A DNA stretch of 64,000 nucleotides from Antedon mediterranea (lineage: Eukaryota > Animalia > Echinodermata): assembly GCF_964355755.1 (NCBI RefSeq), contig NC_092674.1:28644001-28708000 (forward strand), written 5' to 3'. The notes below the pieces were generated by a model that saw only the letters and a program-made list of their open reading frames with translations, was not told the origin of the DNA and did no database searches. Within the stretch, counting starts at the first letter, position 1, and the number at the start of each line of letters is the position of its first letter. Made by a program: the position numbers and the translations under genes. This document shows, piece after piece, positions 2,951-58,729 of this stretch.

Positions 2951-3249
2951 TTTGTGGAATATAAGTTCATGAAGTTTGAAGAGATTACTCTGTTTTGATT
3001 GGACAATCAAGGTGATATTCAAGAATGTTAACTAGAAGGGAGCTTTTGATTTGCGACGTATTGATCTGTCAGCGGTTGTCGTCTTGAAACCACGAAAACT
3101 GTATTGAGAAATAAAGTGTGGATACACATTTCAACTTTCCTGCAGGCACACAATGAACTAACCTGATACTAGGTCTTCAGTCCCTACATATGTCACTGGA
3201 GTCCCAGAACAACAGTGTACAATGTTTTCAGTGAAAGAAATACCCTAAA

Positions 3250-3411
3250 ATCTCTGTCTACACTATCAAACTAGTTTGACAAAAAAGTGTGATGTGCCCA
3301 AATATGGTAGTGATATGCTTAAATATGTTAGTGGAGTATGACATAATCATGTCCATATATGGGCACATCACATTTTTTTGTTACATCAAGTTTGATAGTG
3401 TAGACAGAGCT
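3250..3411. mobile_element. MITE family A (TIR AGCTCTGTCTACACTATCAAACT), PIF/Harbinger-like. Other copies or fragments near 17419, 18406-18689, 19863, 33077-33336, 37319-37458, 37585-37607, 38141-38261, 47857-48000, 48699-48822
   Basis: ~23-bp inverted ends (ctctgtctacactatcaaact / agtttgatagtgtagacagag). TTA flanks both sides of the copies at ~37319 and ~48699. Internal ggtagtgatatgcccaaatat units. About 10 copies in the window. Confidence 0.75.
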
Positions 3412-3900
3412 TAATTCAGAGTACAAGTGTCATCGTAAATCAACATGTATTTATTTTTATTATGTTTGGGTTTTTGTTTCTTAAAAGGTAAATTAATGAT
3501 TTTTTATGTCATTTTCATGTTATTTCATTTCAAATTACTTTCTTTAAATGTGTTTTTATTTTATTATGTCCTTTGTGCAATATTACTATTGTATAAAAAA
3601 TATATGTTCTATAAAATGTACATTATATATATATATATGAAAATAACAGAAACAAATACTGTAAAACATATTTGTATACATCTCTGTATAAAGTAAATGT
3701 CTAAAAATCCTTGTATTTTTCAAATTTAGTATTATTACTGATATATGTCCATATTGTGCCAATTTTGTTGTTTGTAGGAATAACATCTCATGGATTTTTA
3801 TTTTAGGAGGCATAATTACATAAAATTTATCTTCAACAAAATATTTACCATTTTGTTCTCCCATGTGTGACTTTTGAACTGTGCATGGTATGAAGGCTAA

Positions 3901-15704: not shown

Positions 15705-18700
15705 ATGTTGGTACCATATGTTGAAATTTACAAAGAAAATGTTGTAGAGGTACGAATATAAATCTATTTAGTACTGAAAAGTTCAGTTTTTTGTTAACAA
15801 ATAGTTGTTATGAAGCTAAAGGGAACTAGTTTAAGTTGCTGGTCAATTCGTCCCACCTGGACGGAACTGAAAAGCAGTCATACTATATACGCACGGTAGA
15901 CCCGGTGACGCCCGGTAGGCCCGGTCGGTATGCTTGTATGATATCAATATTTAACTTTTTATAATATATTTTTCCAGGAAATACAAGTTAAATATAAAAT
16001 CTAAAAATTATTGGAATATTGTTAAATGTTTCATCATACATTATCATCAACGCAACGTAACGTGTTAAAATGCCACAAAACATCACTTATCACAGAGGGC
16101 GGTCTTCAGTTTTCGTAATAAACCTGGTAATCCTTATTTTCACAGTTTTTCAAATAAAAAATGTCACAAATATCACAATAACATAAATAATTGTAGCATA
16201 CTTTACTTGAGTTGAGTATCATTAAATCCTACCGGCCCCAACTGGCGATACTATGGTTTATGGAAAATAACTGATACAAGAATAATTAACAAGTGGAACT
16301 CGTTGCCCGAATTGATTGTCAATAGCAAGAGTGTAAACTCATTCAAAAACAAACTTGACAAACACTCACACACATATGAGAGAAGAGGCTGAGGCTCCTT
16401 ACGAGTTTAAAAACTCAGTGCCTCTTAACTTTACTAAAGGTAAGAATTACTAAAGGTAAGAATGGTTTATGGAAAATAATTGTGGTTTTTATGAATTATT
16501 TCATTTTTTATTATTGTTAAAAATTCATTCTAATGTACAGTGCCATGATTATTTTAATTTTGCTACAATGAAATACTAATAACAAGTTTTATATATCAAT
16601 ATTCTAATCTAGAGATTAAAATTCAGCAAATCAGAATTTGTGAAGTTTGGTTTCTTACTGGGCAATTACAGGTATGTGGCTTGTGTGCTTTTTCAAAGAC
16701 ATAAAGTACTAACCCACTAGGCCTACTGACTGATATCTTCACAAACAAACACTCTTTGAAGTCAGACGTCCTGTGTACTACAGTGCAGATCACTAACATT
16801 CATTTGTGCACCAGATTTTAAAACATACAGTATTTCAATTCTTTTCCTTAGCAATTATGATGAAGTTTCTATAACAATAAGCTCTTGCAGCAGTGTATGT
16901 GATTCCAATGATGACGTGGTTTCAACACTAGATGCAACTTCACATGTTCTTTCTGGAGGTACTGCATTCATATTGTTTATACATCCAAAAAAAACTGAAT
17001 ATTTCAACAAAGTTATTTTTCTGTTAAGGCCAACTTACACAGACGAGCAGTAACTGTAAGCGGAAAACCGCGTAGCTTGTCGTAGAATCTGTATCTATCC
17101 TGAACAGAAACCACCCGTCCGGTCCGCGTTGTGTGCTAAATGGTCATAAGGAATAACATAATTTCACTATTACCGTTACCGCTCGTCTGTGTAAATTGGC
17201 GTTAATACATTTACTTTATAAAGTGAGTTTCAAAAGAAAATAAGTATTTGATTTCTTTCAATATTTAGATACAAGTATAGTAGGACTTTGGTTTAAAACA
17301 ACAGAAAACGTGGATACTCCTCTCATAGAGAAATTCTGTTTAGAAAAAGTTTCTGATAAATTGAAAGTAAGTTGTACTAATCATACAATATTATTATCAA
17401 TTTTTTTTTTCTATTTAAAGCTCTGTCTACCCTTTCAAACTTTATGTGACAAAAAAATGATGATGACGTCATATCCCTACCGTATTTGAGCATCATAAAT
17501 AAATAGGTTTTATTATAATAATAAAGTTAAAAGATCTCACTAGTTACCTAAATCATTATGGTAATTTTGTAATGAGTATTCATAAATTATCTTTATATTT
17601 TTAGCCATGGAGAAACTTTCTTGTCATATATGCCTTACCTAAAGATGAAGCCATCACCAGTATACATAGTGAGAATATTTTCATTTATAACAAAGTAGAA
17701 CATTCAGTAACACCAGCTTCTGTGAACATCCTACAAACGCCTGATTTTTTGCGGACGTTCCGAATCGCTGCTGATCTACCGGTGATGATGACCCTTAGCA
17801 AGGATACTGGTGAGTTTAGCCGCTGCATAAATTTGAATATTTGACTCCTGCGCAGAATTATATGCTTGAATGATCAGATACAACGAAGTAACCCTATTGT
17901 TAGCACACAAGAGTATCGTCCATTTATTGTTTTCTTTCTCAACTTTTAACACTGTTGATTTGCCTAAATTCAAATTTATTTTTTACATTTATATTGTCTT
18001 TTTTGCTTTTGGACATAAATAAATGTCTTTCAATTGAATAAAACAAAATAAATTCTTTATTCATTGTCTTTTTCAGATATAACACGTACGGCAGTGCAAC
18101 ACATCAAAGACTTAAAGCAACAAATTGATTCGGAGAGGACAGTGTTTCATATTAAGAACAGCAGTGTATTGCTAGGTATAGATAAACCAGTAATTGTTAA
18201 CAATACCAGGATTGATGATGCGACCTCTGCAAAGGAGATATTGAAATACATTGAAGATGATGAGGTGGATAGCTTTAGTGTTAAAAAAGCAAAGAAAACT
18301 AAGAAGAAAATCTCAGATGAAGAGGTATGAAATATATTTTTGGTTCTACTACTAGGAATTATTAATAAGGAAGAGGATAAGGAATCTCAATCTAAAAATG
18401 TCTTAAGCTCTGTCCACACTATCAAACTAGTTTTACAAAAAAAGTGTGAATAAGGTAGTGATATGCCCAAATATGGTAGTGATATGACATCATCATTTCC
18501 ATACAGTATACGGGACATATTTTTGTCACATAACGTTTGATAGTGTAGATAGAGCTTATCAAACTAGTTTGACAAAAAACTGTGATGTTCCAAAATATGA
18601 TAGTGATATACCCAAATATGGTAGTGATATGACATCATCATGTCCATCACATATTTTTGTCACATAAAGGTTGTTAGCTAGACAGAGCTTTAAAGTTCAA

Positions 18701-21700
18701 TTTATTATAATATTGAACCAATGTCGGTTTCTTGTTAGTTCCTTAAATTCCAACTTAATTCTTATGTTTACTTTGTAGGTTGTTGATGTTTCTTTACTGA
18801 CGCGAATAACACATCCAGCACATAGTATAGCTTCACCAGTGGCTTACTACAAATCTGGTAAATTTATTAAAGATGTATATGTAAAAAAACATGAAAAATG
18901 AAGATTAGTTTTCATAAAGTTATTCACTTCTGTAAAAAAACAATTATTTCACATATAAAAAGACAAAAAAAACGTTTAATTTTAACCAAAAAATCTTGTC
19001 ACGTTTGCTAAATATTTTGTTTTATACTATATGCCTCATTGAAGTATACACTTTCATCATTCACCTCATGCCATTATTTGTACCATTGCACTCATAAACA
19101 TTCATTTTTTGTATTTATTACTACATTTGATGAAACATTGTATTTTAATTATGTGTTTTATCTTTTAGGGTTAACACAACAAGTACAGTTCGCTCTACCA
19201 GTAAATGTTGTGGTTCAAGTAAACGAAAACAAAACTCCAGTTTCCAAACTTCCTAAACTTTTTATCAACGCTGTATGTAAACAATTAGCTGCCATGGCAA
19301 CATGTGTGCAAAAGTATTCAACAAATGAGATTTGCATTGTAAGGCCATTCCATTTTCAACCATGGGGGTGTAACCAGTTTGTAACAATTATATACCCAGA
19401 TGGGAAGACTGATAAAGATTTAGGTAGGTTATGTTTTCTTGTCAAAGTATTGACTTACCAAGTATTGATAATTTTCACAAACACACTTTCGATTTGCAAT
19501 GACTAACAGCCAAACTACATGTGCTCATGCAGAAATATTGAGACATGTTTTCTCACTCTCCACTTTGTAAAAAATAACATACATACAAAAGAAATAGAGC
19601 CAACAAATACTAAATTTCCCTTATATCTCTGTTTTTCTAGAATCTGAAAGAAGGACATTACATGAAATGCTGTTACTCCCTCTGGATAAACCGTTACTCA
19701 GAAGAAATAGTGCTTATCGCTTCCCAGCTGATAAAAAGAATATTGTGTACTTAGAAAATACACATATTGGTTTAAAAAATGACGGATGTGAGTTACTTGT
19801 TTATATTTCGTACAAATATAGCCAAAATGTAATATAATATTTTCTTGATCTTGGAAGTCTTAGGCTCTGTCTACACTATCAAACTTTATGTGAAAAAAAA
19901 AGAAGCTAAAATTAGGAATAAAGCAACTGTACATGTCCAATATTACCTCATTGATCTTTAGTAATAATAGTAATAGTAATTGAGTAATAAATGTACATTT
20001 TCTTGTACGTACATAAAAGAACTTTTGATGAGATATCGTAGTAATAAATGTATAAATAAATTTGATACTCATATTTCAATTTTTTCCAAAGCTGACGGCA
20101 GCAAAGTTTACCTCGTGCAGGGAACCTATTCCTATCACCATTACATGCAAGATAAATTTAACGATGATAAATGGGGTTGTGCTTATCGCTCGTTACAAAC
20201 CATTGTATCGTGGTTTCGACATCAAGGCTACACAGACGTGCCAGTACCGAGTCATAGGGTAATCCAACAGACCTTAGTCGATGTTGGGGATAAAGATGCT
20301 AAGTTTGTCGGTTCTAGAAATTGGATTGGATCGATAGAAGTGTGCACTGTTCTTGACCAACTGCTAGAGGTAAAGTCCGTTTTCCACTAGGCAAATTTAT
20401 TTGCGCAAATCGAAAGTGCGCATGCGTATTAATATTTTTCATCTACCTTTTGTGAAGTGGAAAAATGCACAACCAATCATAACTCAAGAATGTTTGATTT
20501 GCGCAAATATATTCGCTGATGAAAACAAGACTAAGGGTCTTGGCTCTTTTCATACTTGTAATAACTACTGAAATATTTATCATTAAAGAAGACAGTATAT
20601 TATATTAGTATGGAACGCCTCCTCTGCCTTCAGTTCACATTTATCATGCAGTACACACCAATCGTCATGCAGTACACACCAATCGTCATGCAGTACACAC
20701 CAATGGTCATGCAGTACACACCAATGGTCATGCAGTACACACCAATCGTCGTTCACATTTATCATGCAGTACACACCAATGGTTATGCAGTACACACCAA
20801 TCGTCATGCAGTACACACCAATGGTCATGCAGTACACACCAATCGTCATGCAGTACACACCAAACATCATGCAGTACACACCAATCGTCATGCAGTACAC
20901 ACCAAACATCATGCAGTACACACCAATGGTCATGCAGTACACACCAATTGTCATGCAGTACACACCAATCGTCATGCAGTACACACCAATCGTCATGCAG
21001 TGAAATATTGCGTAATTTATACCGCCACCTATCGACAAAATCGAATATCACGTGACGTTTATTAGACGGCTGTAAAACTAGGCCATCGACTCTAAGATTT
21101 CTTTTATGTTTGACATACTGTACTTATTTTAACCGCTACACATCTCTGTGAATGCTCTGTTTTTTATATATACAATAATTTATTATGCGAGACACAGGCG
21201 TATGGAACGCCTCCTCTGCCTTCAGTTCACATTTATCATGCAGTACACACCAATCGTCATGCAGTACACACCAATGGTCATGCAGTACACACCAATGGTC
21301 ATGCAGTACACACCAATGGTCATGCAGTACACACCAATCGTCGTTCACATTTATCATGCAGTACACACCAATGGTTATGCAGTACACACCAATCGTCATG
21401 CAGTACACACCAATGGTCATGCAGTACACACCAATCGTCATGCAGTACACACCAAACATCATGCAGTACACACCAATCGTCATGCAGTACACACCAATGG
21501 TCATGCAGTACACACCAATTGTCATCCAGTACACACCAATCGTCATGCAGTACACACCAATCGTCATGCAGTGAAATATTGCGTAATTTATACCGCCACC
21601 TATCGACAAAATCGAATATCACGTGACGTTTATTAGACGGCTGTAAAACTAGGCCATCGACTCTAAGATTTCTTTTATGTTTGACATACTGTACTTATTT

Positions 21701-24700
21701 TAACCGCTACACATCTCTGTGAATGCTCTGTTTTTTATATATACAATAATTTATTATGCGAGACACAGGCGCGGCTAGGAGGCCATTGCAATTATTGAAT
21801 TCCATAAAAGAAGTTTAAATAGTCTTAGTTTTACAGCCGTCTAATAAACCTCACGTGATATTCGATTTTGTCGATAGGTGGCGGTATAAATTACGCAATA
21901 TTTGACTGCATGACGATTGGTGTGTACTGCATGACGATTGGTGTGTACTGCATGACAATTGGTGTGTACTGCATAATGTTTGGTGTGTACTGCATGACGA
22001 TTGGTGTGTACTGCATGACGATTGGTGTGTACTGCATGATAAATGTGAACGACGATTGGTGTGTACTGCATGACAATTGGTGTGTACTGCATGACCATTG
22101 GTGTGTACTGCATGACGATTGGTGTGTACTACATGACGATTGGTGTGTACTGCATGATGTTTGGTGTGTACTGCATGACGATTGGTGTGTACTGCATGAC
22201 GATTGGTGTGTACTGCATGACCATTGGTGTGTACTGCATGACGATTGGTGTGTACTGCATGATAAATGTGAACTGAAGGCAGAGGAGGCGTTCCATACAG
22301 GCGCGGCTAGGAGGCCATTGCAATTATTGAATTCCATAAAAGAAGTTTAAATAGTCTTAGTTTTATGGAACGCCTCCTCTGCCTTCAGTTCACAATGGTC
22401 ATGCAGTACACACCAATGGTCATGCAGTACACACCAATGGTCATGCAGTACACACCAATGGTCATGCAGTACATACCAATGGTCATGCAGTACACACCAA
22501 TCGTCGTTCACATTTATCATGCAGTACACACCAATGGTCATGCAGTACACACCAATGGTCATGCAGTACACACCAATCGTCATGCAGTACACACCAAACA
22601 TCATGCAGTACACACCAATCGTCATGCAGTACACACAAAACATCATGCAGTACACACCAATGGTCATGCAGTACACACCAATTGTCATGCAGTACACACC
22701 AATCGTCATGCAGTACACACCAATCGTCATGCAGTGAAATATTGCGTAATTTATACCGCCACCTATCGACAAAATCGAATATCACGTGACGTTTATTAGA
22801 CGGCTGTAAAACTAGGCCATCGACTCTAAGATTTCTTTTATGTTTGACATACTGTACTTATTTTAACCGCTACACATCTCTGTGAATGCTCTGTTTTTTA
22901 TATGTACAATAATTTACTATGCGAGACACAGGCGCGGCTAGGAGGCCATTGCAATTATTGAATTCCATAAAAGAAGTTTAAATAGTCTTAGTTTTACAGC
23001 CGTCTAATAAACCTCACGTGATATTCGATTTTGTCGATAGGTGGCGGTATAAATTACGCAAGATTTGACTGCATGACGATTGGTGTGTACTGCATGACAA
23101 TTGGTGTGTACTGCATAATGTTTGGTGTGTACTGCATGACGATTGGTGTGTACTGCATGACGATTGGTGTGTACTGCATGATAAATGTGAACGACGATTG
23201 GTGTGTACTGCATGACAATTGGTGTGTACTGCATGACCATTGGTGTGTACTGCATGACGATTGGTGTGTACTGCATGACGATTGGTGTGTACTGCATGAT
23301 GTTTGGTGTGTACTGCATGACGATTGGTGTGTACTGCATGACGATTGGTGTGTACTGCATGACCATTGGTGTGTACTGCATGACGATTGGTGTGTACTGC
23401 ATGACGATTGGTGTGTACTGCATGATAAATGTGAACTGAAGGCAGAGGAGGCGTTCCATATAGTTTTACAGCCGTCTAATAAACCTCACGTGATATTCGA
23501 TTTTGTCGATAGGTGGCGGTATAAATTACGCAATATTTGACTGCATGACGATTGGTGTGTACTGCATGACGATTGGTGTGTACTGCATGACAATTGGTGT
23601 GTACTGCATAATGTTTGGTGTGTACTGCATGACGATTGGTGTGTACTGCATGACGATTGGTGTGTACTGCATGATAAATGTGAACGACGATTGGTGTGTA
23701 CTGCATGACAATTGGTGTGTACTGCATGACCATTGGTGTGTACTGCATGACGATAGGTGTGTACTGCATGACGATTGGTGTGTACTGCATGATGTTTGGT
23801 GTGTACTGCATGACGATTGGTGTGTACTGCATGACGATTGGTGTGTACTGCATGACCATTGGTGTGTACTGCATGACCATTGGTATGTACTGCATGACGA
23901 TTGGTGTGTACTGCATGATAAATGTGAACTGAAGGCAGAGGAGGCGTATGGAACGCCTCCTCTGCCTTCAGTTCACATTTATCATGCAGTACATATGGAA
24001 CGCCTCCTCTGCCTTCAGTTCACATTTATCATGCAGTACACACCAATCGTCATGCAGTACACACCAATCGTCATGCAGTACACACCAATGGTCATGCAGT
24101 ACACACCAATCGTCATGCAGTACACACCAATCGTCATGCAGTACACACCAAACATCATGCAGTACACACCAATCGTCATGCAGTACACACCAATCGTCAT
24201 GCAGTACACACCAATCGTCGTTCACATTTATCATGCAGTACACACCAATCATCATGCAGTACACACCAATCGTCATGCAGTACACACCAAACATCATGCA
24301 GTACACACCAATTGTCATGCAGTACACACCAATCGTCATGCAGTACACACCAATCGTCATGCAGTCAAATATTGCGTAATTTATACCGCCACCTATCGAC
24401 AAAATCGAATATCACGTGAGGTTTATTAGACGGCTGTAAAACTAAGACTATTTAAACTTCTTTTATGGAATTCAATAATTGCAATGGCCTCCTAGCCGCG
24501 CCTGTGTCTCGCATAATAAATTATTGTATATATAAAAAAACAGAGCATTCACAGAGATGTGTAGCGGTTAAAATAAGTACAGTATGTCAAACATAAAAGA
24601 AATCTTAGAGGCGATGGCCTAGTTTTACAGCCGTCTAATAAACGTCACGTGATTTTCGATTTTGTCGATAGGTGGCGGTATAAATTACGCAAAATTTCAC

Positions 24701-27700
24701 TGCATGACGATTGGTGTGTACTGCATGACGATTGGTGTGTACTGCATGACAATTGGTGTGTACTGCATGACCATTGGCGTGTACTGCATGATGTTTGGTG
24801 TGTACTGCATGACGATTGGTGTGTACTGCATGATGTTTGGTGTGTACTGCATGACGATTGGTGTGTACTGCATGACGATTGGTGTGTACTGCATGACGAT
24901 TGGTGTGTACTGCATGACCATTGGTGTGTACTGCATGATAAATGTGAACGACGATTGGTGTGTACTGCATGACCATTGGTGTGTACTGCATGACCATTGG
25001 TGTGTACTGCATGACCATTGGTGTGTACTGCATGACGATTGGTGTGTACTGCATGACCATTGTGAACTGAAGGCAGAGGAGGCGTTCCATAAGTACACAC
25101 CAATCGTAATGCAGTACACACCAATCGTCATGCAGTACACACCAATCGTCATGCAGTACACACCAATCGTCATGCAGTACACACCAAACATCATGCAGTA
25201 CACACCAATCGTCATGCAGTACACACCAATCGTCATGCAGTACACACCAATGGTCATGCAGTACACACCAATTGTCATGCAGTACACACCAATCGTCGTT
25301 CACATTTATCATGCAGTACACACCAATCGTCATGCAGTACACACCAATCGTCATGCAGTACACACCAATCGTCATGCAGTACACACCAAACATCATGCAG
25401 TACACACCAATTGTCATGCAGTACACACCAATCGTCATGCAGTACACACCAATCGTCATGCAGTCAAATATTGCGTAATTTATACCGCCACCTATCGACA
25501 AAATCGAATATCACGTGAGTTTTATTAGACGGCTGTAAAACTATATGGAACGCCTCCTCTGCCTTCAGTTCACATTTATCATGCAGTACACACCAATCGT
25601 CATGCAGTACACACCAATGGTCATGCAGTACACACCAATGGTCATGCAGTACACACCAATGGTCATGCAGTACACACCAATCGTCGTTCACATTTATCAT
25701 GCAGTACACACCAATGGTTATGCAGTACACACCAATCGTCATGCAGTACACACCAATGGTCATGCAGTACACACCAATCGTCATGCAGTACACACCAAAC
25801 ATCATGCAGTACACACCAATCGTCATGCAGTACACACCAAACATCATGCAGTACACACCAATGGTCATGCAGTACACACCAATTGTCATGCAGTACACAC
25901 CAATCGTCATGCAGTACACACCAATCGTCATGCAGTGAAATATTGCGTAATTTATACCGCCACCTATCGACAAAATCGAATATCACGTGACGTTTATTAG
26001 ACGGCTGTAAAACTAGGCCATCGACTCTAAGATTTCTTTTATGTTTGACATACTGTACTTATTTTAACCGCTACACATCTCTGTGAATGCTCTGTTTTTT
26101 ATATATACAATAATTTATTATGCGAGACACAGGCGCGGCTAGGAGGCCATTGCAATTATTGAATTCCATAAAAGAAGTTTAAATAGTCTTAGTTTTACAG
26201 CCGTCTAATAAACCTCACGTGATATTCGATTTTGTCGATAGGTGGCGGTATAAATTACGCAATATTTGACTGCATGACGATTGGTGTGTACTGCATGACG
26301 ATTGGTGTGTACTGCATGACAATTGGTGTGTACTGCATAATGTTTGGTGTGTACTGCATGACGATTGGTGTGTACTGCATGACGATTGGTGTGTACTGCA
26401 TGATAAATGTGAACGACGATTGGTGTGTACTGCATGACAATTGGTGTGTACTGCATGACCATTGGTGTGTACTGCATGACGATTGGTGTGTACTACATGA
26501 CGATTGGTGTGTACTGCATGATGTTTGGTGTGTACTGCATGACGATTGGTGTGTACTGCATGACGATTGGTGTGTACTGCATGACCATTGGTGTGTACTG
26601 CATGACGATTGGTGTGTACTGCATGACGATTGGTGTGTACTGCATGATAAATGTGAACTGAAGGCAGAGGAGGCGTTCCATAAAACTAAGACTATTTAAA
26701 CTTCTTTTATGGAATTCAATAATTGCAATGGCCTCCTAGCCGCGTATGGAACGCCTCCTCTGCCTTCAGTTCACAATGGTCATGCAGTACACACCAGTCG
26801 TCATGCAGTACACACCAATGGTCATGCAGTACACACCAATGGTCATGCAGTACACACCAATGGTCATGCAGTACACACCAATCGTCGTTCACATTTATCA
26901 TGCAGTACACACCAATGGTCATGCAGTACACACCAATTGTCATGCAGTACACACCAATGGTCATGCAGTACACATCAATCGTCATGCAGTACACACCAAA
27001 CATCATGCAGTACACACCAATCGTCATGCAGTACACACCAAACATCATGCAGTACACACCAATGGTCATGCAGTACACACCAATTGTCATGCAGTACACA
27101 CCAATCGTCATGCAGTGAAATATTGCGTAATTTATACCGCCACCTATCGACAAAATCGAATATCACGTGACGTTTATTAGACGGCTGTAAAACTAGGCCA
27201 TCGACTCTAAGATTTCTTTTATGTTTGACATACTGTACTTATTTTAACCGCTACACATCTCTGTGAATGCTCTGTTTTTTATATATACAATAATTTATTA
27301 TGCGAGACACAGGCGTATGGAACGCCTCCTCTGCCTTCAGTTCACAATGGTCATGCAGTACACACCAATCGTCATGCAGTACACACCAATCGTCATGCAG
27401 TACACACCAATGGTCATGCAGTACACACCAATGGTCATGCAGTACACACCAATCGTCGTTCACATTTATCATGCAGTACACACCAATGGTCATGCAGTAC
27501 ACACCAATCGTCATGCAGTACACACCAATGGTCATGCAGTACACACCAATCGTCATGCAGTACACACCAAACCTCATGCAGTACACACCAATCGTCATGC
27601 AGTACACACCAAACATCATGCAGTACACACCAATGGTCATGCAGTACACACCAATTGTCATGCAGTACACACCAATCGTCATGCAGTACACACCAATCGT

Positions 27701-30700
27701 CATGCAGTACACACCAATCGTCATGCAGTGAAATTTTGCGTAATTTATACCGCCACCTATCGACAAAATCGAAAATCACGTGACGTTTATTAGACGGCTG
27801 TAAAACTAGGCCATCGACTCTAAGATTTCTTTTATGTTTGACATACTGTACTTATTTTAACCGCTACACATCTCTGTGAATGCTCTGTTTTTTTATATAT
27901 ACAATCATTTATTATGCGAGACACAGGCGCGGCTAGGAGGCCATTGCAATTATTGAATTCCATAAAAGAAGTTTAAATAGTCTTAGTTTTACAGCCGTCT
28001 AATAAACCTCACGTGATATTCGATTTTGTCGATAGGTGGCGGTATAAATTACGCAATATTTGACTGCATGACGATTGGTGTGTACTGCATGACAATTGGT
28101 GTGTACTGCATGATGTTTGGTGTGTACTGCATGACGATTGGTGTGTACTGCATGACGATTGGTGTGTACTGCATGATAAATGTGAACGACGATTGGTGTG
28201 TACTGCATGACAATTGGTGTGTACTGCATGACCATTGGTGTGTACTGCATGACGATTGGTGTGTACTGCATGACGATTGGTGTGTACTGCATGACGATTG
28301 GTGTGTACTGCATGATGTTTGGTGTGTACTGCATGACGATTGGTGTGTACTGCATGACGATTGGTGTGTACTGCATGACCATTGGTGTGTACTGCATGAC
28401 GATTGGTGTGTACTGCATGACGATTGGTGTGTACTGCATGATAAATGTGAACTGAAGGCAGAGGAGGCGTTCCATACAGGCGCGGCTAGTATGGAACGCC
28501 TCCTCTGCCTTCAGTTCACATTTATCATGCAGTACACACCAATCGTCATGCAGTACACACCAATCGTCATGCAGTACACACCAATGGTCATGCAGTACAC
28601 ACCAATCGTCATGCAGTACACACCAATCGTCATGCAGTACACACCAAACATCATGCAGTACACACCAATCGTCATGTAGTACACACCAATCGTCATGCAG
28701 TACACACCAATGGTCATGCAGTACACACCAATTGTCATGCAGTACACACCAATCGTCGTTCACATTTATCATGCAGTACACACCAATCGTCATGCAGTAC
28801 ACACCAATCGTCATGCAGTACACACCAAACATTATGCAGTACACACCAATTGTCATGCAGTACACACCAATCGTCATGCAGTACACACCAATCGTCATGC
28901 AGTCAAATATTGCGTAATTTATACCGCCACCTATCGACAAAATCGAATATCACGTGAGGTTTATTAGACGGCTGTAAAACTAAGACTATTTAAACTTCTT
29001 TTATGGAATTCAATAATTGCAATGGCCTCCTAGCCGCGCCTGTGTCTCGCATAATAAATTATTGTATATATAAAAAACAGAGCATTCACAGAGATGTGTA
29101 GCGGTTAAAATAAGTACAGTATGTCAAACATAAAAGAAATCTTAGAGTCGATGGCCTAGTTTTACAGCCGTCTAATAAACGTCACGTGATATTCGATTTT
29201 GTCGATAGGTGGCGGTATAAATTACGCAATATTTCACTGCATGACGATTGGTGTGTACTGCATGACGATTGGTGTGTACTGCATGACAATTGGTGTGTAC
29301 TGCATGACCATTGGTGTGTACTGCATGATGTTTGGTGTGTACTGCATGACGATTGGTGTGTACTGCATGATGTTTGGTGTGTACTGCATGACGATTGGTG
29401 TGTACTGCATGACCATTGGTGTGTACTGCATGACGATTGGTGTGTACTGCATAACCATTGGTGTGTACTGCATGATAAATGTGAACGACGATTGGTGTGT
29501 ACTGCATGACCATTGGTGTGTACTGCATGACCATTGGTGTGTACTGCATGACCATTGGTGTGTACTGCATGACGATTGGTGTGTACTGCATGATAAATGT
29601 GAACTGAAGGCAGAGGAGGCATATGGAACGCCTCCTCTGCCTTCAGTTCACATTTATCATGCAGTACACACCAATGGTCATGCAGTACACACCAATGGTC
29701 ATGCAGTACACACCAATCGTCATGCAGTACACACCAATCGTCATGCAGTACACACCAAACATCATGCAGTACACACCAATCGTCATGCAGTACACACCAA
29801 TGGTCATGCAGTACACATCAATCGTCATGCAGTACACACCAATGGTCATGCAGTACACACCAATTGTCATGCAGTACACACCAATCGTCGTTCACATTTA
29901 TCATGCAGTACACACCAATCGTCATGCAGTACACACCAATCGTCATGCAGTACACACCAAACATCATGCAGTACACACCAATCGTCATGCAGTACACACC
30001 AATCGTCATGCAGTCAAATATTGCGTAATTTATACCGCCACCTATCGACAAAATCGAATATCACGTGAGGTTTATTAGACGGCTGTAAAACTAAGACTAT
30101 TTAAACTTCTTTTATGGAATTCAATAATTGCAATGGCCTCCTAGCCGCGCCCGTGTCTCGCATAATAAATTATTGTATATATAAAAAACAGAGCATTCAC
30201 AGAGATGTGTAGCGGTTAAAATAAGTACAGTATGTCAAACATAAAAGAAATCTTAGAGTCGATGGCCTAGTTTTACAGCCGTCTAATAAACGTCACGTGA
30301 TATTCGATTTTGTCGATAGGTGGCGGTATAAATTACGCAATATTTCACTGCATGACGATTGGTGTGTACTGCATGACGATTGGTGTGTACTGCATGACAA
30401 TTGGTGTGTACTGCATGACCATTGGTGTGTACTGCATGATGTTTGGTGTGTACTGCATGACGATTGGTGTGTACTGCATGATGTTTGGTGTGTACTGCAT
30501 GACGATTGGTGTGTACTGCATGACCATTGGTGTGTACTGCATGACGATTGGTGTGTACTGCATGACCATTGGTGTGTACTGCATGATAAATGTGAACGAC
30601 GATTGGTGTGTACTGCATGACCATTGGTGTGTACTGCATGACCATTGGTGTGTACTGCATGACCATTGGTGTGTACTGCATGACGATTGGTGTGTACTGC

Positions 30701-33700
30701 ATGACCATTGTGAACTGAAGGCAGAGGAGGCGTTCCATAGGCTAGGAGGCCATTGCAATTATTGAATTCCATAAAAGAAGTTTAAATAGTCTTAGTTTTA
30801 CAGCCGTCTAATAAACCTCACGTGATATTCGATTTTGTCGATAGGTGGCGGTATAAATTACGCAATATTTGACTGCATGACGATTGGTGTGTACTGCATG
30901 ACGATTGGTGTGTACTGCATGACAATTGGTGTGTACTGCATGATGTTTGGTGTGTACTGCATGACGATTGGTGTGTACTGCATGACGATTGGTGTGTACT
31001 GCATGATAAATGTGAACGACGATTGGTGTGTACTGCATGACAATTGGTGTGTACTGCATGACCATTGGTGTGTACTGCATGACGATTGGTGTGTACTGCA
31101 TGACGATTGGTGTGTACTGCATGACGATTGGTGTGTACTGCATGATGTTTGGTGTGTACTGCATGACGATTGGTGTGTACTGCATGACGATTGGTGTGTA
31201 CTGCATGACCATTGGTGTGTACTGCATGACGATTGGTGTGTACTGCATGACGATTGGTGTGTACTGCATGATAAATGTGAACTGAAGGCAGAGGAGGCGT
31301 TCCATACTCCTCTGCCTTCAGTTCACATTTATCATGCAGTACACACCAATCGTCATGCAGTACACACCAATCGTCATGCAGTACACACCAATGGTCATGC
31401 AGTACACACCAATCATCATGCAGTACACACCAATCGTCATGCAGTACACACCAAACATCATGCAGTACACACCAATCGTCATGCAGTACACACCAATCGT
31501 CATGCAGTACACACCAATCGTCATGCAGTACACACCAATGGTCATGCAGTACACACCAATTGTCATGCAGTACACACCAATCGTCGTTCACATTTATCAT
31601 GCAGTACACACCAATCGTCATGCAGTACACACCAATTGTCATGCAGTACACACCAATCGTCATGCAGTACACACCAATCGTCATGCAGTACACACCAATC
31701 GTCATGCAGTCAAATATTGCGTAATTTATACCGCCACCTATCGACAAAATCGAATATCACGTGAGGTTTATTAGACGGCTGTAAAACTAAGACTATTTAA
31801 ACTTCTTTTATGGAATTCAATAATTGCAATGGCCTCCTAGCCGCGCCTGTGTCTCGCATAATAAATTATTGTATATATAAAAAACAGAGCATTCACAGAG
31901 ATGTGTAGCGGTTAAAATAAGTACAGTATGTCAAACATAAAAGAAATCTTAGAGTCGATGGCCTAGTTTTACAGCCGTCTAATAAAGGTCACGTGATATT
32001 CGATTTTGTCGATAGGTGGCGGTATAAATTAGGCAATATTTCACTGCATGACGATTGGTGCGTACTGCATGACAATTGATGTGTACTGCATGATGTTTGG
32101 TGTGTACTGCATGACGATTGGTGTGTACTGCATGATGTTTGGTGTGTACTGCATGACGATTGATGTGTACTGCATGACCATTGGTGTGTACTGCATGACG
32201 ATTGGTGTGTACTGCATGACCATTGGTGTGTACTGCATGATAAATGTGAACGACGATTGGTGTGTACTGCATGACCATTGGTGTGTACTGCATGACCATT
32301 GGTGTGTACTGCATGACCATTGGTGTGTACTGCATGACCATTGGTGTGTACTGCATGACGACTGGTGTGTACTGCATGACCATTGTGAACTGAAGGCAGA
32401 GGAGGCGTTCCATAGATGGCCTAGTTTTACAGCCGTCTAATAAACGTCACGTGATATTCGATTTTGTCGATAGGTGGCGGTATAAATTATGCAATATTTC
32501 ACTGCATGACGATTGGTGTGTACTGCATGACGATTGGTGTGTACTGCATGACAATTGGTGTGTACTGCATGACCATTGGTGTGTACTGCATGATGTTTGG
32601 TGTGTACTGCATGACGATTGGTGTGTACTGCATGATGTTTGGTGTGTACTGCATGACGATTGGTGTGTACTGCATGACCATTGGTGTGTACTGCATGATA
32701 AATGTGAACGACGATTGGTGTGTACTGCATGACCATTGGTGTGTACTGCATGACCATTGGTGTGTACTGCATGACCATTGGTGTGTACTGCATGACGATT
32801 GGTGTGTACTGCATGACCATTGTGAACTGAAGGCAGAGGAGGCGTTCCATAGAGGCGTTCCATATATTAGTTCATTTAAAATTTGTGTTCAAGTTTTTAT
32901 TTAGTAGAAACCTTATTTATGTATGTTGTATACAAATTGTCTTAAATTAATGTGTTTGTTATTTGTAGGTTACCTCAAAAATAATGTTTGTAAATACTGG
33001 CTCTGAAATGGCTAACAAAGGCAGAGAATTAGCCCACCATTTTGAAACACAGGGAACACCAATCATGATAGGTAAGCACTGTCTACACTATCCAACTTTA
33101 TGTGACAAAAAAATGTGATATGATGTGCTCATATATGGACATGATGATGTCATCACTACCATACTTGTTTTGTAGGGGCCCTCATGAGACAAGCTTATGC
33201 TTCTAGTGCGGGCCCCAGTTGTTGTTGTCATAATAATAACTGAATAAATGTATATGAACTATACTTTAGTATATCACTACCATTTCGGCATGTCACACCC
33301 TTTTTGTCAAACTAGTTTGATAGTGTAGACAGAGCTGTAGTGTCCCCTACCCAAGAATTAGAAGTGTTCTCAACATGTACTTAGCATAAATTATGATTAC
33401 GTCAGAGTAGGGAAAACATCTGACCAATTTATCCTCTCTTACCCACAGGTGGAGGTGTGTTAGCTCACACTATTCTGGGTGTTGACTTCAATGATAAATC
33501 TGGTGCTTTAAAGTTCCTTATTCTAGATCCACATTATACAGGCTCAGAAGACATTAAAATCATACAGGATAAGGTGTGTTAGCATTTTTATTTTTGTTTA
33601 TCACTGGTTGAGTGGCTAAGCTCTTTTGATGTCTTCTCTACTGATATTAAACAAATCGCCTCTCTTTTTCTACCACATCAATATAAACCTCTGGTCTTGG

Positions 33701-36167: not shown

Positions 36168-39100
36168 TCAACTATCCTCCCAGCTGTTTTCTACAACACG
36201 TATGACTTTTTTCTCGTACTCTCGTCGGTTTTCTTGATACAACTGAGCAGCTAGACTATTGGCTGGACTGTTTGGATTCGGTTCATCGAGCAATGACTAA
36301 AAAAAACCAACAAAAAACACAAAATTGGTTAATGGGACACATTCTGGTCAACAAGTGTTTAAATCAGCACAGTTGACCTCAAAAAGAAGGCAATAGACGC
36401 ATACTGTAGGTCTACCATGACGATAGCCACCACACTAACTATTGACTAATTTACTGTACATGCATGGTCAACTGTTCGTATAGAAAACTGTATAGCATGC
36501 ACAGTCGACCATGATTATAGCCACCTAATTATATGATGACTATTGGCACAGTCAACCGTGCTGAAAAGTCGACTGTGCCTATAGCCTCATTCATTTAAAA
36601 TAACACTCACTTGTATTGATGTAAGTATAGCTGAAACATCATATGTTGGGCTCCATCTATTCTGCAAAATATCTAAGCATATTCCACCATCTGCATAAAC
36701 TGAAATATAAAAATAAATTGTTTTCATTAATTTTAAATTCCAATTCATGCATGTACAAAAAATAAAGTAACATTGTAAAAACTGAGTTGAAATGGAACAA
36801 AAAACCCCATAAACAAGCAAAAAATCTTTTACAAAAATAGTGGTACCCTTAAAAAGAAAACATTAAGACTGTTATAATTTTTTTTAAAATTATTATAACT
36901 AAAATGACCAATTGCGGAAATCTTATCAATCATCTCCCATGTCTTAAAAATACATCTGTGTAGTAATTGTAAATTTCAGACGCAATAACAGATGACAAAT
37001 CATAGTTTAAAAATGGAATATCTTCGCTTAAACAGCATTAAAAACAACTTTTCTACTTTCGTTTGAATTTAATAAGAGAACAATTCTTATACAAGATTTA
37101 TAGAAAGAAAGAAGCAAAAGTAAAACTGTTATTTTGATTGATTATCATATTAAATTAATCTTAACAATTACGAATGAAACACTGATTGAAAACACAATAA
37201 TGGTAGTCAGCTGAACCAATAATCTGTGACAAAATTATTGGTTTCAAATGCAATATAGTACTTCCTTTTATTTTTATAGAACTATCTATTTTAGTGTACT
37301 GTATGTGACAATGTATTAAGCTCTGTCTACACTATCAACCTTGATGTGACAACAATATTGGATGTGCTCATTTATGGACATGATGAAGTCATATCACTAC
37401 CATATTTGAGCACATCACACTATTTTGTCACACAAAGTTTTATAGTGTAGACAGAGCTTTATGTCCTTAATTCTCTCCTCCCCCTCCCCCTCTTTTTTTT
37501 TTATACGAGTCACCTCTTTCTCCCAACTTAATTTTATGGCAAGGGAGCTTCTTTAATTTCATTCATAAAAGTTTAGATTATACTAGTTTGATAGTGTAGA
37601 CAGAGCTTTATAACAAAGAATATAGAGTGTATTAATGGAACCCAAAGTTATCATTACAATAGGGAAGGCCATGATATAGTCACAGAATAATAACTGCACT
37701 GTTAAAAAGCAGACAAGTAGTCTTTGTAATCAACAAGATAATAGAAATCATGAATCTGAGCTCCTGTAAATTCAAGTAGTATAGAAAGGTTGTCTACTTT
37801 CAACAATAGTGACTTTACATTTGTCCAGAAATCACAGTTTTATAGTACTGACATTTTTCAGGTTTTTTTACACAACATTAACACATTGTATATCATGGAG
37901 CTAGCTAGCTCCATGGTATACACTAACAGTAAGACATTTCAATTCCAATTAAAATTGTGTTGTTTCACATAGTATTTAAGAATAATACACACAGTATGTT
38001 GGGAGTAGAATTATTTTAAAATAGTGGGGTATGCACTGTGTGGAAGTAGGTAGGCAAGGCTCAGTGTGAATTGCCTGTTGAAGTCCCTATCATATGCTAC
38101 AATCAAGAATCAATAATGTATATTCGCCTATATTGCTATAAGCTCTGTCTACACTATCAAACTTTATGTGACAACAAAAATTTGATGTGCCCATATATGG
38201 ACTATATTTGGGCATATCGCTACCATTTTTGTCAATTTAGCTTGATAGTGTGGACAAAGCTTCAGAGTTCCCCAGCTTGATAAGTCTAATAAAAATGCAG
38301 GTACAAATACAGTACACATAGTGGTGGTGGAACAAAAGGTCTTTGGATTGGGTGTCAACCTTTTTAAGGTGGGTGGAAAAAGGTGTATAAAGAAGGTTTT
38401 GGGATGGGTGCCAGGTGAAAATTTGGGTGGAAGTATACATAAATATTGCACTGATGAAGGGCTAGTGTTGCCCAAAAGCTCTGCTAACTTTTCTGGCTGT
38501 TTTACTTTATCCAGGGCTCGCAGAATCGCTTGCCCGACGTCCCGCGGCAACCAAATAAATACGTCGGGCAACTAAAATTTAACATGTCATGTCCCGACGG
38601 GCAACCTCTTAAAATCACCGAAAATGTCCACGATGTTTTACAGGGGTTGTGAAAAACTGTAACAATGAAAATAATAGTTGCGCACAAACGAATTCTCTTG
38701 ACGTCGAGACCAGTGTAGTGTTTGTTAAGTAAATGTATGGATCGGAATTCGGTGGTATGGAACGTTATCTCCAGGAGCCAAAACACGTGTTTCTATGCAG
38801 TCGGGCGTATCAAGTCGTTGCGTATAGAGTTTCCAGGTCTGTCATATAGCACGCGGTCTCTTGCGGCATCCATTGATCGCGAAATAGGAAGCCTTGAACT
38901 CTCGGCTCTTATTTGAAGTTATTATACCAGGGAGTTTCTAATTAACAACTCCCTAGTTATACTATAAACCAAATAAAATAGGGGCTAGTATGTTTTTGGT
39001 TTTTGTTTTTCTCAATTATCGACATCATTTTACGGTGGTAATAAAATCTGAATCTACTACTAAGTATTAATTATGTGGCCTACAGCCTGATAGTAGATTA

Positions 39101-46700: not shown

Positions 46701-48555
46701 ATTCATTCATTTTTTCTTTGACTATTTTTCCTTCCAAAACTTTTTTTGTGTCTCATTTTGGTTTGTTTATTTTTAATAATATGCATGAAATTGTATTTAA
46801 TAATTTTATTATGAAATTATATGGATAATATATATTTTGGTGTAAGTCGGCTTTTTTTGTGTCCAAGAACCTGGCCATAATCCAGCCCATCTCCTTTCTG
46901 TAGACTCTGTATCGGCTTTCAACTGTGGCGTATCTGCCACGAACATCGCCGGTCATCCTGGTGATTCCATGGTTACCGAACCGACATTAGATAATAATTA
47001 CGAAGCCATGGAGATGGAACCTGTAGTACCTAAACCAAGACCTAAACCAGCACGGTGGAGGTGCCAGGCTTTTGTTATATGAATATTCAACTATAAGCAA
47101 ATAAATATTCATATCCTGATCAACATTTAAATGAAGCTTGTGAATATTCATAATACTGTAATCATCTTTTGAAATTGTGTCTGCAAAATGCGGTGTGATG
47201 TGCTTTTAAAGATAATTGTGTGAAACGTAAAAGGTCTTTTCGATACTAAGGTCTTATTTCCAATGTACACTAGGGGATTCAAGCAATTAGTGACTACTTT
47301 GCAGCAGTATATCAAAGGCTAAAGGTCAAATGTTAAGTTAAGTTGTTGAATAATGTATAGCAAAGTTTCCTGGAAGCAGTAACCACACATTTCTAAAGCT
47401 CTTTAATAATGTAATTAATTAAGTTGATTTAATATTACTCTTAAAACCATGTAATTATTGGAGTAATTCATTGTAGATAATCTCAATGCTGGCCTGAGTG
47501 TTGAGGGCGCTGCACACTCTGAGGAAGAGGAACTAATGGATGATGACTCACTCATGACTAAGGTTAATGTGAATGCGATGAACCATGTCCATTCACGTCC
47601 GATAACAATCCAATGTAGGACTCTGAAAGGACACTACATTTGATAAAGTAGGAAATCTAGAAAATTGATTGATTAATTAAGATTATCCATAAATGATTTA
47701 GTAACTTGTCTAATACAGTAGCTACAGAGAGTCATCAAAGTTATCTTCCTATTATTAAAAATATGTCTAAATTTTCATTTTAATTCACCGCAAGGTATAA
47801 GTCTTTTATGATAGGACAATGTTTAAGTAGAGTTCCGTGTGCGATGCTTACTGTTAATCTCTGTCTACACTACCAAACTTTATGTGACAAAAAAATGTGG
47901 TGTGCTCATATATGGAGATGATGATGTCATAGGCATATCACTACCATATTTGGGCACATCACACTTTTTGTCAAACTAGTTTTATAGTGTAGATTGAGCT
48001 TTTTGTCTAAAAATAGAGCTTTACATTTTGTTATGTGTAATATTTAGCATTAACTGTGGTATCAAAAATCTGCTGAGTAGTGTACGGTATTAATTTTTTG
48101 TATGTGTTTAAGAATAGCAATAATGCGTTTTATATTTATTTATATACCTGTATTGTACAATCTTGCCCTTATTTTGCTTGTTCCTTTTTATGCATGTAGA
48201 TGTCCCTACTCCCCTGCAGTTCACACCAAACCATGCTACCCAACCAGCACAACCAAATCTGGCCAATGGTAGTATACCTCACACTAACACTAACGGAATA
48301 CATGCGTCTTTAGATGTTAACTGCAACTCGGAAACCAATGACATGCAAGTGGATGCTGCTGAACCAATGGTAGAGAATGAAAGTCATTTTATGAACGGTG
48401 TTGATGCGGTATCGTCATCGTCGTCCCCCGAGAAACGGTCCAGCCCAATGTCAAGCATGCTAGAACATCAAAGGTCGGTGGAGCAGGCCGCGGGTTATGA
48501 CAGTATTATGTATGAAGCGCTGTACGGTGGCACTCCATTCTGTCATGCGTATTGA
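43769..48555 (+). CDS. ANKRD10: Ankyrin repeat domain protein 10 (exons 43769-43978, 44363-44515, 45284-45375, 45879-46153, 48200-48555)
   Basis: [66 protein letters not shown] and RKR..KKART match ANKRD10 as I recall it. Confidence 0.9.
44540..44688. mobile_element. Short MITE with an 18-bp TIR
   Basis: aggcttatcgcaaatagc / gctatttgcgataaccct. Confidence 0.55.
45491..45648. mobile_element. Short hAT-like MITE (CAGTGG ends)
   Basis: cagtgggcgtattca / tgaatacgccactg; no clear TSD. Confidence 0.45.
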
Positions 48556-49288
48556 GATTGTATTACATTAATACAAAAAAGATAAACATTTTGGCATACA
48601 TGGGGTGTCATAACTGTAGTTGAGCTGGAATTGAGTTACAGACAAAAATCAAAATGCCTGCTGTAAAGAAATAATAAGACTGTAGCAAGTTAACCTTAAG
48701 CTCTGTCTACAGTGTCAAACTTTATGTGATGTGCCCATATATGATGATGTCATATCACTACCCTATTTGGGCATATCACTACCCTATTTGGGAACATCAC
48801 ACTTCCTTTGTTTGATAGAGCTTTAGACCTATATACGATCGATTACATTTGATATTTTCTAGACAGTCAAAAAGCAATATTGGCCAGCATTACATTTTGT
48901 AAAATGTTTATATTTAAACGTCTTATGTATATGGTAGATGATTTTGTAAAAAAAATAATATTCATGAATGTATCTATTTTATTTTCCTATTGCATGGTCA
49001 ACAAGGAATGATAAACATTCTTTACATACTTAAGTCCCGTTTAATGCTATAGTGTGTGAATGCCTTGGTGTCCAGCCAGGATTTGAAACCTGGACGTGGA
49101 AAACAAAAAGTCATAACAAGCAAGGATCATGTGTGTGATATTTTAACAATCTTAATTACTATTACTGTATTCATTTAGTGATGATATTAGTATAAGTACT
49201 GGAATCTTATTATGGATTCCTCCATTCATACAAAGGGTGCCATTCTGCTTTAAATTTTATCAACAGTATATGTAGTAACTCGAAGTAA

Positions 49289-56481: not shown

Positions 56482-58729
56482 CTACTATGTCTTTACAACG
56501 CTACTCATGCCAGTGAGAGGGAAGGGTGATGATATGGGTGGTTTAACTGCAATAATAAAGATTTGTACATACTATACGGCGACTGAAACCATTATCCGTC
56601 TAAAAAAATTTATATACAACCTCCGCAGCACAGATTGAAAAAAAAATGGATCGAATTTCTGTTATGAGTATAGAGTATTTTCCTTTACGACGCCTGAGGG
56701 AATAGACACTTGTGGAACGACACAGAGATTGGAATGTTCCATTCATCGCAAATCAATACATTTGTATAAACGTATATTAAATCTATCAAAATAGTATTTT
56801 TTTAAGAAAATCGGCCTGTCTTCAACATTATGATACTGTACTCGAGCTGTTCAACGGGTTTTCAGCTATTAAAAACAATTATCGTAGGAGGAGATAGGAA
56901 AATGCGAAGCCTCCTCGCATTTTTGTGGCGGGTATTTTTCAAGATGGAAATCCATTAGACAGTGTATACCACGATCGGAAAACACCCCTATTTGGGGCAA
57001 ATCGTTGAACCTAAATTTGTTTTAATCGTCAATAACTAATTATCTAACATAATTTAATTAGTAAACAGGGTTACATCAGGTGGTTAAAATCAGTACCGAA
57101 AGTACGAACCAACTTTATATACCATCGAGTAAAAATTCTAAAAGTAAGGTGCGATTTACCGAATTTTGCCCTTACGTAAATTTATATATAGATGAACGTT
57201 GTGATAGCTCCTCCTTCGACCCAAAGTATGGCCGTTTTTCCCCTGGTACTGATTCTGTAACTTTAGTTTACTTTGTTTTGCGCGTGCATCCTTCTACACA
57301 GTATTACAAAATACCACAGTAGTAGCAGACATAGGCTTACATGCTTGTTTACTTATTAATGAAAACTGTATTTCTAAAATTGTAATTTTTTAGTACACGT
57401 AGATTTGTTTCGTTTTTACCACACATTTACTAAAATGTGATATTAGTTTTTGTTTTATGAAGGAGGATGGAAGGGAGATAGCATAGCATAGCATAGCGTA
57501 TTATATTTTTTCTGCTTCGCTTGGTACTCTAGAACTTTTATTCAAAATATAGGTCTCTGTCAATTGTTAAGCAGATATTTTTCATTATGGCATTGTACTA
57601 TTCACAATACAATAAAAAGAGTATTGAAGGTTGAGGAATAATGGTCCAATTGTTGTCAATGTAGGAGGCATTTACAGTGTCATAGATCACTTCTTTGTTT
57701 ATTGATAATACTTATTAATAATGTACGTGTTATGGTATTTATGTATTGATTGAATTTGTTCATGCGTATATGACCGTCATTATTATGACTGGGTTTCCTA
57801 GGCCCAACGGAATACTACGAAATACAAGCCATTTAAAAGACAAACCATACTAGAGGAGCACCAAAAGCAGGAAATATGCATTTTTAGCTTACGATTCCAA
57901 AGTTTTGGTATTTGGTAAGTCATTGGCCTAAATTGTATATATAGCACGTATGGATGTTATGTATTCAAAATTTAGAGGAAACAAAATCTTTTTTAGGGAA
58001 GGAGATAGCCTATGTATAACTTGATCCGCACTAGTCGAGTAAAACGTTTTGGGCGTCTCGTCACCATTTTGATGCTGAAGAGTAAGAGTTATCGAAAGTA
58101 TTATTTTAGTAGTATTTACTTTTCTGCTTGTTTTTGTATTTTTATGAATGGTTTTTTGATATTTCTTGTGTGGATATTTTCTGATATATTTATTGATTGA
58201 AATGCTATATTTTATCCTTATGTGCTACTTGGTAAGAGGATTCACAGACTCTTGTCAGGGATGTAGTCACCTTTTGTGTTTCCTGCCACTTACTTTGTAG
58301 TTGTTTGTTGTTGTTGTTAATTGGCAAATAAGAATAAGTATTGCAATTAGAGGGTGGTGCGATGCCAACTGAATGTTAACCATGTAGTTTTCAATCAATG
58401 TAAACAGTTAGTTCTGGAACTTCTGGCCGGCTAGAGATAGCAAAGTACTTGGCGATTCATGCACACGATTCATTTGTGGTCATCATCGATAATTAAACGA
58501 TAAGAGGCTAGAATAGACTAATAAAGCCCACATGTTGCTATTATTACATAATGTCGATTATGTCTACCACCATCATAGATGGTGCAAAAAATGACACTTT
58601 GCATTATCAATTGAAAACCTCTTTGGAAGACGACCTATTCGTGGAGTGTAGGCATACATTATGTTAAGCCATTAAAATCTATTATAGGCTTTTTAAAATT
58701 ATTTACAGAAAGCCAGATTCAGATACATA

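Follow-up and report, generated by a model that had tools for sequence, protein, structure and literature searches.

A nest of eleven foldback elements in one intron

We analysed 64,000 nucleotides (nt) of Antedon mediterranea DNA (NC_092674.1, forward strand, 28,644,001–28,708,000), hereafter the window, which was chosen for a nest of transposable elements inserted into one another. Self-comparison and tandem-repeat scans found a single block of related repeats at 20.6–32.9 kilobases (kb), and base-by-base reading resolved positions 20609–32864 into 11 copies (C1 to C11) of a gene-less foldback element of ~1.1 kb. All results on the nest concern this one locus and the assembly sequence, from which the junctions were read. 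Automatic peeling via matching target duplications halted after five copies because of one-sided junctions; the remainder was resolved from coordinates and checked by length accounting, in which 12,214 base pairs (bp) of element copies and seven second copies of 6-bp duplications (42 bp) add up to the 12,256 bp of the nest.

The nest lies in an intron (20370..32968, + strand, GT...AG) of a UFSP2-type gene, identified by exons on either side that match consecutive positions 2–96 and 98–135 of the Peptidase_C78 profile. The intron measures 12,599 bp with the nest and 337 bp without it, an example of how one young family can enlarge a 337-bp intron 37-fold and leave the exons intact. TATTAG borders the nest on both sides (20603–20608 and 32865–32870) and is the only non-self target of the family in the window.

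Architecture and classification of the element

Each copy opens with a 35-bp terminus starting with TATGG, followed inward by 21-bp units in an array and by a 79-bp inner segment; the mirror arm lies beyond a 174-bp spacer, so that arms of 351–435 bp plus 79 bp flank the spacer. In the intact reference copy C3 (22364..23460, + strand), the 35-bp termini are followed by arrays at 22399–22735 and 23068–23425, and the inner segments end at 22814 and start at 22989 on the two sides of the 174-bp spacer. In each of the ten copies whose spacer is free of deletions, the arrays account for 0.63–0.65 of the sequence, and whole units have been gained and lost between copies. The family has TATGGAACGCC-type ends; all 20 intact ends read TATGG or CCATA and 2 of the 22 are truncated. 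Exact 6-bp duplication pairs are present in eight cases (C1, C2, C3, C4, C5, C6, C8, and C9 and C10 taken together), 3 of the 11 copies having no checkable pair of their own. The terminal inverted repeat exceeds 30 bp, with ~31 bp common to both end types and 37 bp in A-type copies, and continues through the arrays and the 79-bp segment. The end types concern nt 31–37 of the left terminus, which are of type A in C1, C2, C6, and C9 and of type N in the other seven copies; right ends are all of type A.

The array unit shares the sequence CAGTWCACA with nt 23–31 of the terminus (8 of 9 bases; equalled in 52 of 1000 shuffles, a borderline result). The motif occurs 32–36 times per copy, as expected of multiplied, putative binding sites. 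The inner arm segment also resembled the array unit at a borderline level (168 and 56 of 1000 shuffles). The inner segments themselves (22735–22814 and 22989–23068 in C3) are nearly invariant across arms and copies and include a run rich in guanine and cytosine (GC). A CACGTG box is present in the left arm, and in the right arm CACGTG is followed by a variant base; we take these to be possible host-factor sites.

An Rfam scan of C8 gave no matches, and the 15 long open reading frames outside the nest, to which the protein scan was confined and which exclude frames over the arrays, showed no match to a transposase family; an autonomous IS3EU partner would carry a DDE transposase of IS3/integrase-like type. 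With no coding capacity and long, internally repetitive inverted arms, the element has a foldback-type non-autonomous design and is best filed as IS3EU-like, a membership judged from its ends and duplication length only. IS3EU and GingerRoot elements have TA..TA ends (TAYGG..CCRTA in fungal families) and 6-bp duplications (PMC10045372, PMC12730594), and the likeness extends to inverted repeats of more than 30 bp and GC-leaning targets (PMC10045372, PMC12730594, PMC6839031). The nest element differs in being gene-less and in its ~450-bp arms full of 21-bp arrays, and the portions of these reports available to us describe no self-targeting for IS3EU, whose structure and function have been called largely unexplored (PMC11934779, in part).

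Order of insertion and exact targets

The outermost copy, C1 (20609..32864, + strand), is flanked by TATTAG and survives in four pieces at 20609–21200, 22304–22363, 23467–23946, and 32858–32864. Three copies entered it directly. C2 (21201..22297, +) is intact and lies in the C1 spacer at CAGGCG, with both duplication copies present; C3 lies at TAGTTT, at the inner end of the right arm; and C4 (23947..32851, −) lies in the right terminus at nt 8–13, with GAGGCG on either side. C4 received four further copies. The intact C5 (23994..25091, −) is in its outermost 21-bp unit (nt 42–47, AGTACA), the only array target, and the intact C6 (25544..26682, +) is at TAGTTT, read AAACTA, in the orientation opposite to its host. 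C7 (26745..31306, +) has its left flank at CGCGGC of C4, whereas its right end is fused to nt 11 of the C11 terminus and the second duplication copy is absent; C11 (31307..32414, −) is missing nt 1–10 of its right terminus and has its far flank at GCCATC of C4, read GATGGC. Within C7, the intact C8 (27316..28476, +) occupies the spacer at CAGGCG, and C9 (28490..29621, −) lies at GGCTAG but has lost its left tip, the second GGCTAG coming only after C10. C10 (29622..30739, −), itself intact, is joined to the C9 terminus at the register that C4 has within C1 and is flanked by GAGGCA.

We mapped all ten nested targets onto C3 coordinates. Four fall within a GC-rich spacer patch of 13 bp (22929..22941, + strand): CAGGCG at 22929–34 was the target of both C2 and C8, CGCGGC at 22933–38 that of C7, and GGCTAG at 22936–41 that of C9. 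TAGTTT at 22989–94 was taken by C3 in the orientation of its host and by C6 in the opposite one, and GCCATC at 22816–21 by C11; nt 8–13 of a terminus were the target of C4 and C10, and arm nt 42–47 that of C5. The mapping bears out an earlier note on this DNA, made from the letters alone, which had placed the ten insertions at these positions: four in the GC-rich patch, two independent ones at TAGTTT (guests and hosts indeed differ), one at the GCCATC border, two in a terminus, and only C5, in the outermost unit, touching arrays that form about two thirds of the element. The support is uneven, since only seven of the ten (C2, C3, C4, C5, C6, C8, and C9) show both duplication copies. C7 shows its left flank only, C11 its right flank only, and C10 one flank, which reads GAGGCA rather than GAGGCG, with the second copy and the C9 tip absent. 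The note had also missed an eleventh junction, at which the end of C7 is joined to nt 11 of the C11 terminus.

The pair of C9 and C10 has GGCTAG at either side, and the simplest reading is that C10 destroyed the end of C9 and the two then moved as a unit; alternatively, the loss in place of one 13-bp tandem unit gives the same arrangement. For C7 and C11, between whose flanks 111 bp of the C4 spacer are missing, what is seen can be explained by two insertions plus a neighbouring deletion, and two orders of events would serve. Exact element ends still define the positions there, although at least one of them is probably the end point of a deletion and not an insertion. C9 and C10, and possibly C7 and C11, probably travelled as dimers, or were trimmed as such, once a terminus insertion had destroyed the inner end. 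Both irregular junctions (29616–29640 and 31295–31320) are end-to-end joints lacking 7–10 bases of one tip and sit at the centre of a long near-palindrome, and trimming at the palindrome centre is an alternative origin for them.

Recurrence of insertion at the same base

At two spots, and probably at a third, two different copies had inserted at exactly the same base. In simulated placement with 2 million draws, three exact repeats among ten targets had a probability of 5.5e-6 under uniformity over the element and of 7e-5 when only the nine non-array events were considered, and two exact repeats among the seven verified targets had a probability of 1.3e-4. The clustering of four events within eight start positions was likewise improbable (P = 2.6e-4, or 0.003 without the arrays).

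The repeated sites were not copied as composites because each pair differs in both guest and host. Counting array substitutions, unit insertions and deletions, core substitutions, and end type, a measure that is no clock because array units may convert, we found 15 differences between C2 and C8 and 12 between their hosts; 11 between C3 and C6, which lie in opposite relative orientations, and 12 between their hosts; and 11 between C4 and C10, which lie at opposite ends, and 5 between their hosts. Of the three outcomes that the earlier note had named as refuting its finding, uniform placement is rejected at this locus and the copying of already nested composites is rejected for the repeated sites; the third, a short sequence preference, explains part of the hotspots and not all of them. 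The hotspot half of the finding is solid here.

A broader version of the same objection is that later events made the pattern, through copied composites, recombination between 21-bp units that removed insertions from the arrays, or assembly mis-joins. It draws on real features, namely the single duplication around C9 and C10, which resembles a moved dimer, the three one-sided junctions, the gain and loss of whole units by the arrays, and the reading of the junctions from an assembly. The repeated pairs speak against it, with guests 11–15 and hosts 5–12 differences apart and two pairs differing also in orientation or end, as does guest orientation relative to the host, which is the same in six cases and opposite in four. 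No excision footprint was found in 10 of the 11 cores (332–333 bp), and mis-assembly is opposed by the eight exact duplications and by variants specific to single copies. Recombinational loss was rejected as a process confined to arrays, since each of the six intact guests tested, irrespective of its location, shares 435–700 bp of direct-repeat homology with the sequence on either side. On balance we consider it very unlikely that later events produced the pattern.

The earlier note had offered extruded hairpin loops and bases as an alternative target, and such hairpin or cruciform structures might draw the transposase to their loops and stem bases. In favour of this, the element forms a long inverted repeat, with three events at stem/loop borders and another two or three close to the base of the stem. 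The main patch, however, is in mid-spacer, the targets are not locally palindromic, and the spacer folds no better than its shuffles (z = 0.16; 109 of 200). Perfect 6-bp duplications would moreover imply staggered attack on duplex DNA, and a cruciform would separate the spacer strands into different loops. A 174-bp spacer should also hinder cruciform extrusion. The proposal is unsupported by these data, and we regard an extruded structure as a highly improbable target.

Targeting of the nest by its own family

Ten successive insertions entered the nest, and no other copy of the family was found in the 51.7 kb of flanking sequence, which holds ten unoccupied SAGGCG sites. The nominal probability of ten nest entries is 2.7e-11 as a product of length shares and 3e-10 with GC weighting; these values overstate the effect because the window was chosen for its nest and the flanks include exons, though not plausibly by ten orders of magnitude. 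The guests represent about nine sequence types. C2, C6, and C9 are within 0–3 counted differences of one another and C1 is within 5–6 of them, whereas all other pairs are at least 9 apart. C10 is at least 10 counted differences away from every nest member, yet it sits in C9, a copy that departs from C6 only at the junction base. The donor of C10 was then no surviving neighbour, or the dimer was formed elsewhere, and self-insertion was not merely copying inside the nest.

These observations bear on an explanation without recruitment, in which an accessible locus and local hopping from nearby donors set the stage and plain sequence preference did the rest. The near-identical C2, C6, and C9 could be local copies, the GC content of the element exceeds that of the flanks (0.43 versus 0.34), and the choice of the window for its nest would exaggerate any excess. 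A precedent exists in the P element of Drosophila, which, like the nest element, has base-exact hotspots and a GC-rich preference, together with local hopping, and which has a hotspot at bp 19–26 of its own terminal repeat that scores as a good target motif (PMC2577343, in part). The P element belongs to another superfamily, makes 8-bp duplications, and prefers a 14-bp palindromic motif of which none was found in the nest, and no five-level nest is described in the available part of that paper (PMC2577343). The difference in GC, however, favours the element only 1.3-fold per base, the ten flank SAGGCG sites are unoccupied, and about nine sequence types, with C10 lacking a near relative in the nest, fit poorly with local copying. 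We consider an origin without recruitment unlikely.

Self-recruitment is likely because sequence preference cannot explain ten copies of about nine types choosing the nest over the flank, and self-targeting is a stronger result than array avoidance. The recruitment of incoming complexes by protein bound on the arrays, as the earlier note had imagined it, gains indirect support from the ten nest entries, the empty 51.7-kb flank, and the diversity of guests; the binding itself would be a further step.

Why the arrays were spared

The arrays cover 64.6% of positions, yet among the ten targets only that of C5 touches one (P = 6.0e-4; for the seven verified targets, P = 0.0097; for the events grouped into five clusters, P = 0.057). 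The binomial test overstates the avoidance because it treats array bases as independent while the arrays are few, repeated contexts, with ~53 effective 14-bp contexts compared with 315 outside. Much of the pattern follows local sequence. No array hexamer has five or more G/C, whereas five of the ten targets do, and GC content over 14 bp, a width chosen afterwards among nine widths tried, was the best single predictor (difference in Akaike information criterion, dAIC, −23.8, versus −11.0 for an array term). The GC model lifts the probability of at most one array event to 0.06. All three SAGGCG sites in the element were taken, accounting for 4 of the 10 events; the probability that two of three random non-array hexamers match at five of six bases is 0.03. 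Among random strand-symmetric preferences that gave three repeats, at most one array event had a probability of 0.03–0.19 in 12 of 15 settings (sigma at least 0.5), and the three weakest settings almost never produced three repeats. A predictor based on proximity to AGGC (dAIC −17.6) had been devised after seeing the data and was not used as evidence.

Several results weigh against this reading. The array term stayed significant after GC at all nine widths for the ten events (P = 0.002–0.012) and for the seven verified events (P = 0.008–0.036), and was marginal for the seven distinct sites (P = 0.03–0.12). TAGTTT, taken twice, is AT-rich (4 G/C in 14), as are the sole non-self target TATTAG and the flanking duplication of another IS3EU-like element, the second in the window. 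Of 24 GC-rich hexamers, 12 lie in the inner arm segments and took none of the five GC-rich events (0.5^5 = 0.03), which fits occupied arms. The fitted GC models still leave three exact repeats unlikely (P = 0.002–0.04). GingerRoot duplications are GC-rich (61.2% versus 49.6%; PMC6839031, in part), a published bias too weak to shift the array share of 0.646. No palindromic or column-wise target motif emerged from nine contexts, a comparison of low power (palindromicity P = 0.33–0.73; best column information P = 0.64).

Part of this evidence would be accommodated if the transposase or a host protein coated the arrays and inner arm segments, tethering transpososomes and blocking insertion there, so that events fell at exposed tips, arm borders, and spacer. 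The persistence of the array term after GC is as expected of such a coat. The 79-bp inner segments are untouched except for their last six bases, despite holding half of the GC-rich hexamers, and three events, among them the TAGTTT pair, which GC cannot explain, lie no more than 8 bp from the border of arm and spacer. The sole array event is in the outermost unit, and the second IS3EU-like element shares the design of ends plus arrays. A coat alone, however, gives no account of four events in 13 of 174 spacer bases, nor of SAGGCG being taken at every occurrence; the C5 target falls within the CAGTACACA motif, the would-be binding site, and the small number of independent array contexts weakens the avoidance that the coat is meant to explain. 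As a full explanation, tethering combined with blocking is conceivable but doubtful. For the shielding of arrays by bound protein, which the earlier note had raised, the array term remains nominally significant after GC, but GC fits better, and with ten events shielding is inseparable from sequence preference. Shielding is possible; we lean toward sequence preference, and both may act.

We also considered whether the spacer patch mimics an element end. The spacer showed no significant likeness to the terminus (64, 297, and 257 of 300 shuffles as good) or to the unit of the arrays (992 and 673 of 1000 shuffles), and the idea was dropped. Helical or nucleosome periodicity of the sites, inspected by eye only, gave nothing clear.

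A proposed model for self-insertion

The account that we favour, while holding it tentatively and at somewhat under an even chance, is that incoming copies were drawn to resident ones by transposase on their ends and 21-bp arrays and that the base was then chosen by a preference for GC-rich spots in duplex DNA; SAGGCG is one such spot and is absent from the arrays. The copies would have been mobilised in trans by an IS3EU transposase. Bound on the ends and arrays of a resident copy, it would tether the incoming complex, and strand transfer would then select a duplex site by local sequence, such that sequence rather than occupancy would be the main reason that the arrays were spared. Binding of this kind has a parallel in the Lemi1 proteins, which bind subterminal repeats of Emigrant, a miniature inverted-repeat transposable element (MITE; PMC1636448, in part).

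A more elaborate route, which we think rather unlikely, would make the arrays multimerised transposase sites that capture transpososomes from distant donors and pass them to a few exposed spacer and end bases. Each insertion would enlarge the landing pad, and insertions into a terminus would give end-to-end dimers that move as units. Were this self-homing real, the arrays would be a portable, sequence-defined docking site for integration.

Comparison with known systems

A literature search for IS3EU self-nesting or self-insertion hotspots found no description, Repbase Reports and most subscription journals lying outside the search. Self-insertion at fixed internal bases is already known, and the interest here lies in its strength and in the superfamily. 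Castaway and Gaijin, two rice MITEs, are much shorter than the nest element and belong to other superfamilies. They too are non-autonomous and have a high rate of self-insertion by independent events, but the available text describes no arrays or nests of eleven copies (PMC5172404). Alu insertions into Alu in human show single-nucleotide hotspots inside copies of the same family, and nested insertions there reveal target motifs as they do here; Alu is, however, a retroelement, known from genome-wide statistics where we have one deep nest (PMC2836564, in part). The Galileo foldback elements share the long, internally repetitive inverted arms, the lack of coding capacity, and the nested insertions, but are of the P superfamily with 7-bp duplications, and the nested guests reported are of other families (PMC2775673, in part). 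Helitrons also form self-insertion composites (PMC5148889, in part).

Because about nine sequence types converge on a single 1.1-kb target, the nest provides exact sites and allows a direct test of whether subterminal arrays tether transposase to targets. In the IS3 family, targeted insertion of IS911 occurs beside end-like sequences. According to the parts consulted of two reports, this element, whose transposase is related to the presumed one, can have its attack directed by binding to an element end, but it is bacterial, uses a circle intermediate, and attacks a few bases outside the end, whereas the nest events lie inside the end and in the spacer (PMC7780238, PMC2909936).

Other features of the window

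The second IS3EU-like element (53827–56481; 2,655 bp) is of another family, with TACGG...CCGTA ends (19 of 20 bases complementary) flanked by CTACAA and CTACTA (5 of 6 identical). It has 20-bp arrays in both arms and a palindrome of ~60 bp near 54140–54200, and it contains no copy of the nest family. Short inverted repeats with GCTCTGTCTACAC-type ends form a further family, found at 3247–3414, 18405–18690, 19864, 33084–33335, 37312–37606, 38142, 47850–48003, and 48696–48804; several are flanked by TTAA or by TTAT/ATAA-like tetramers, some have a 21-bp internal unit, and the one at 18405–18690 resembles two tandem units. A direct repeat of 180–230 bp is present in three related copies, 79–87% alike, at 249–476, 907–1133, and 2203–2382. 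An 809-codon open frame at 58697–61126 has RING and filamin matches and is TRIM-like, and sulfatase, mitochondrial carrier, phosducin-like, and ankyrin pieces occur elsewhere in the window.

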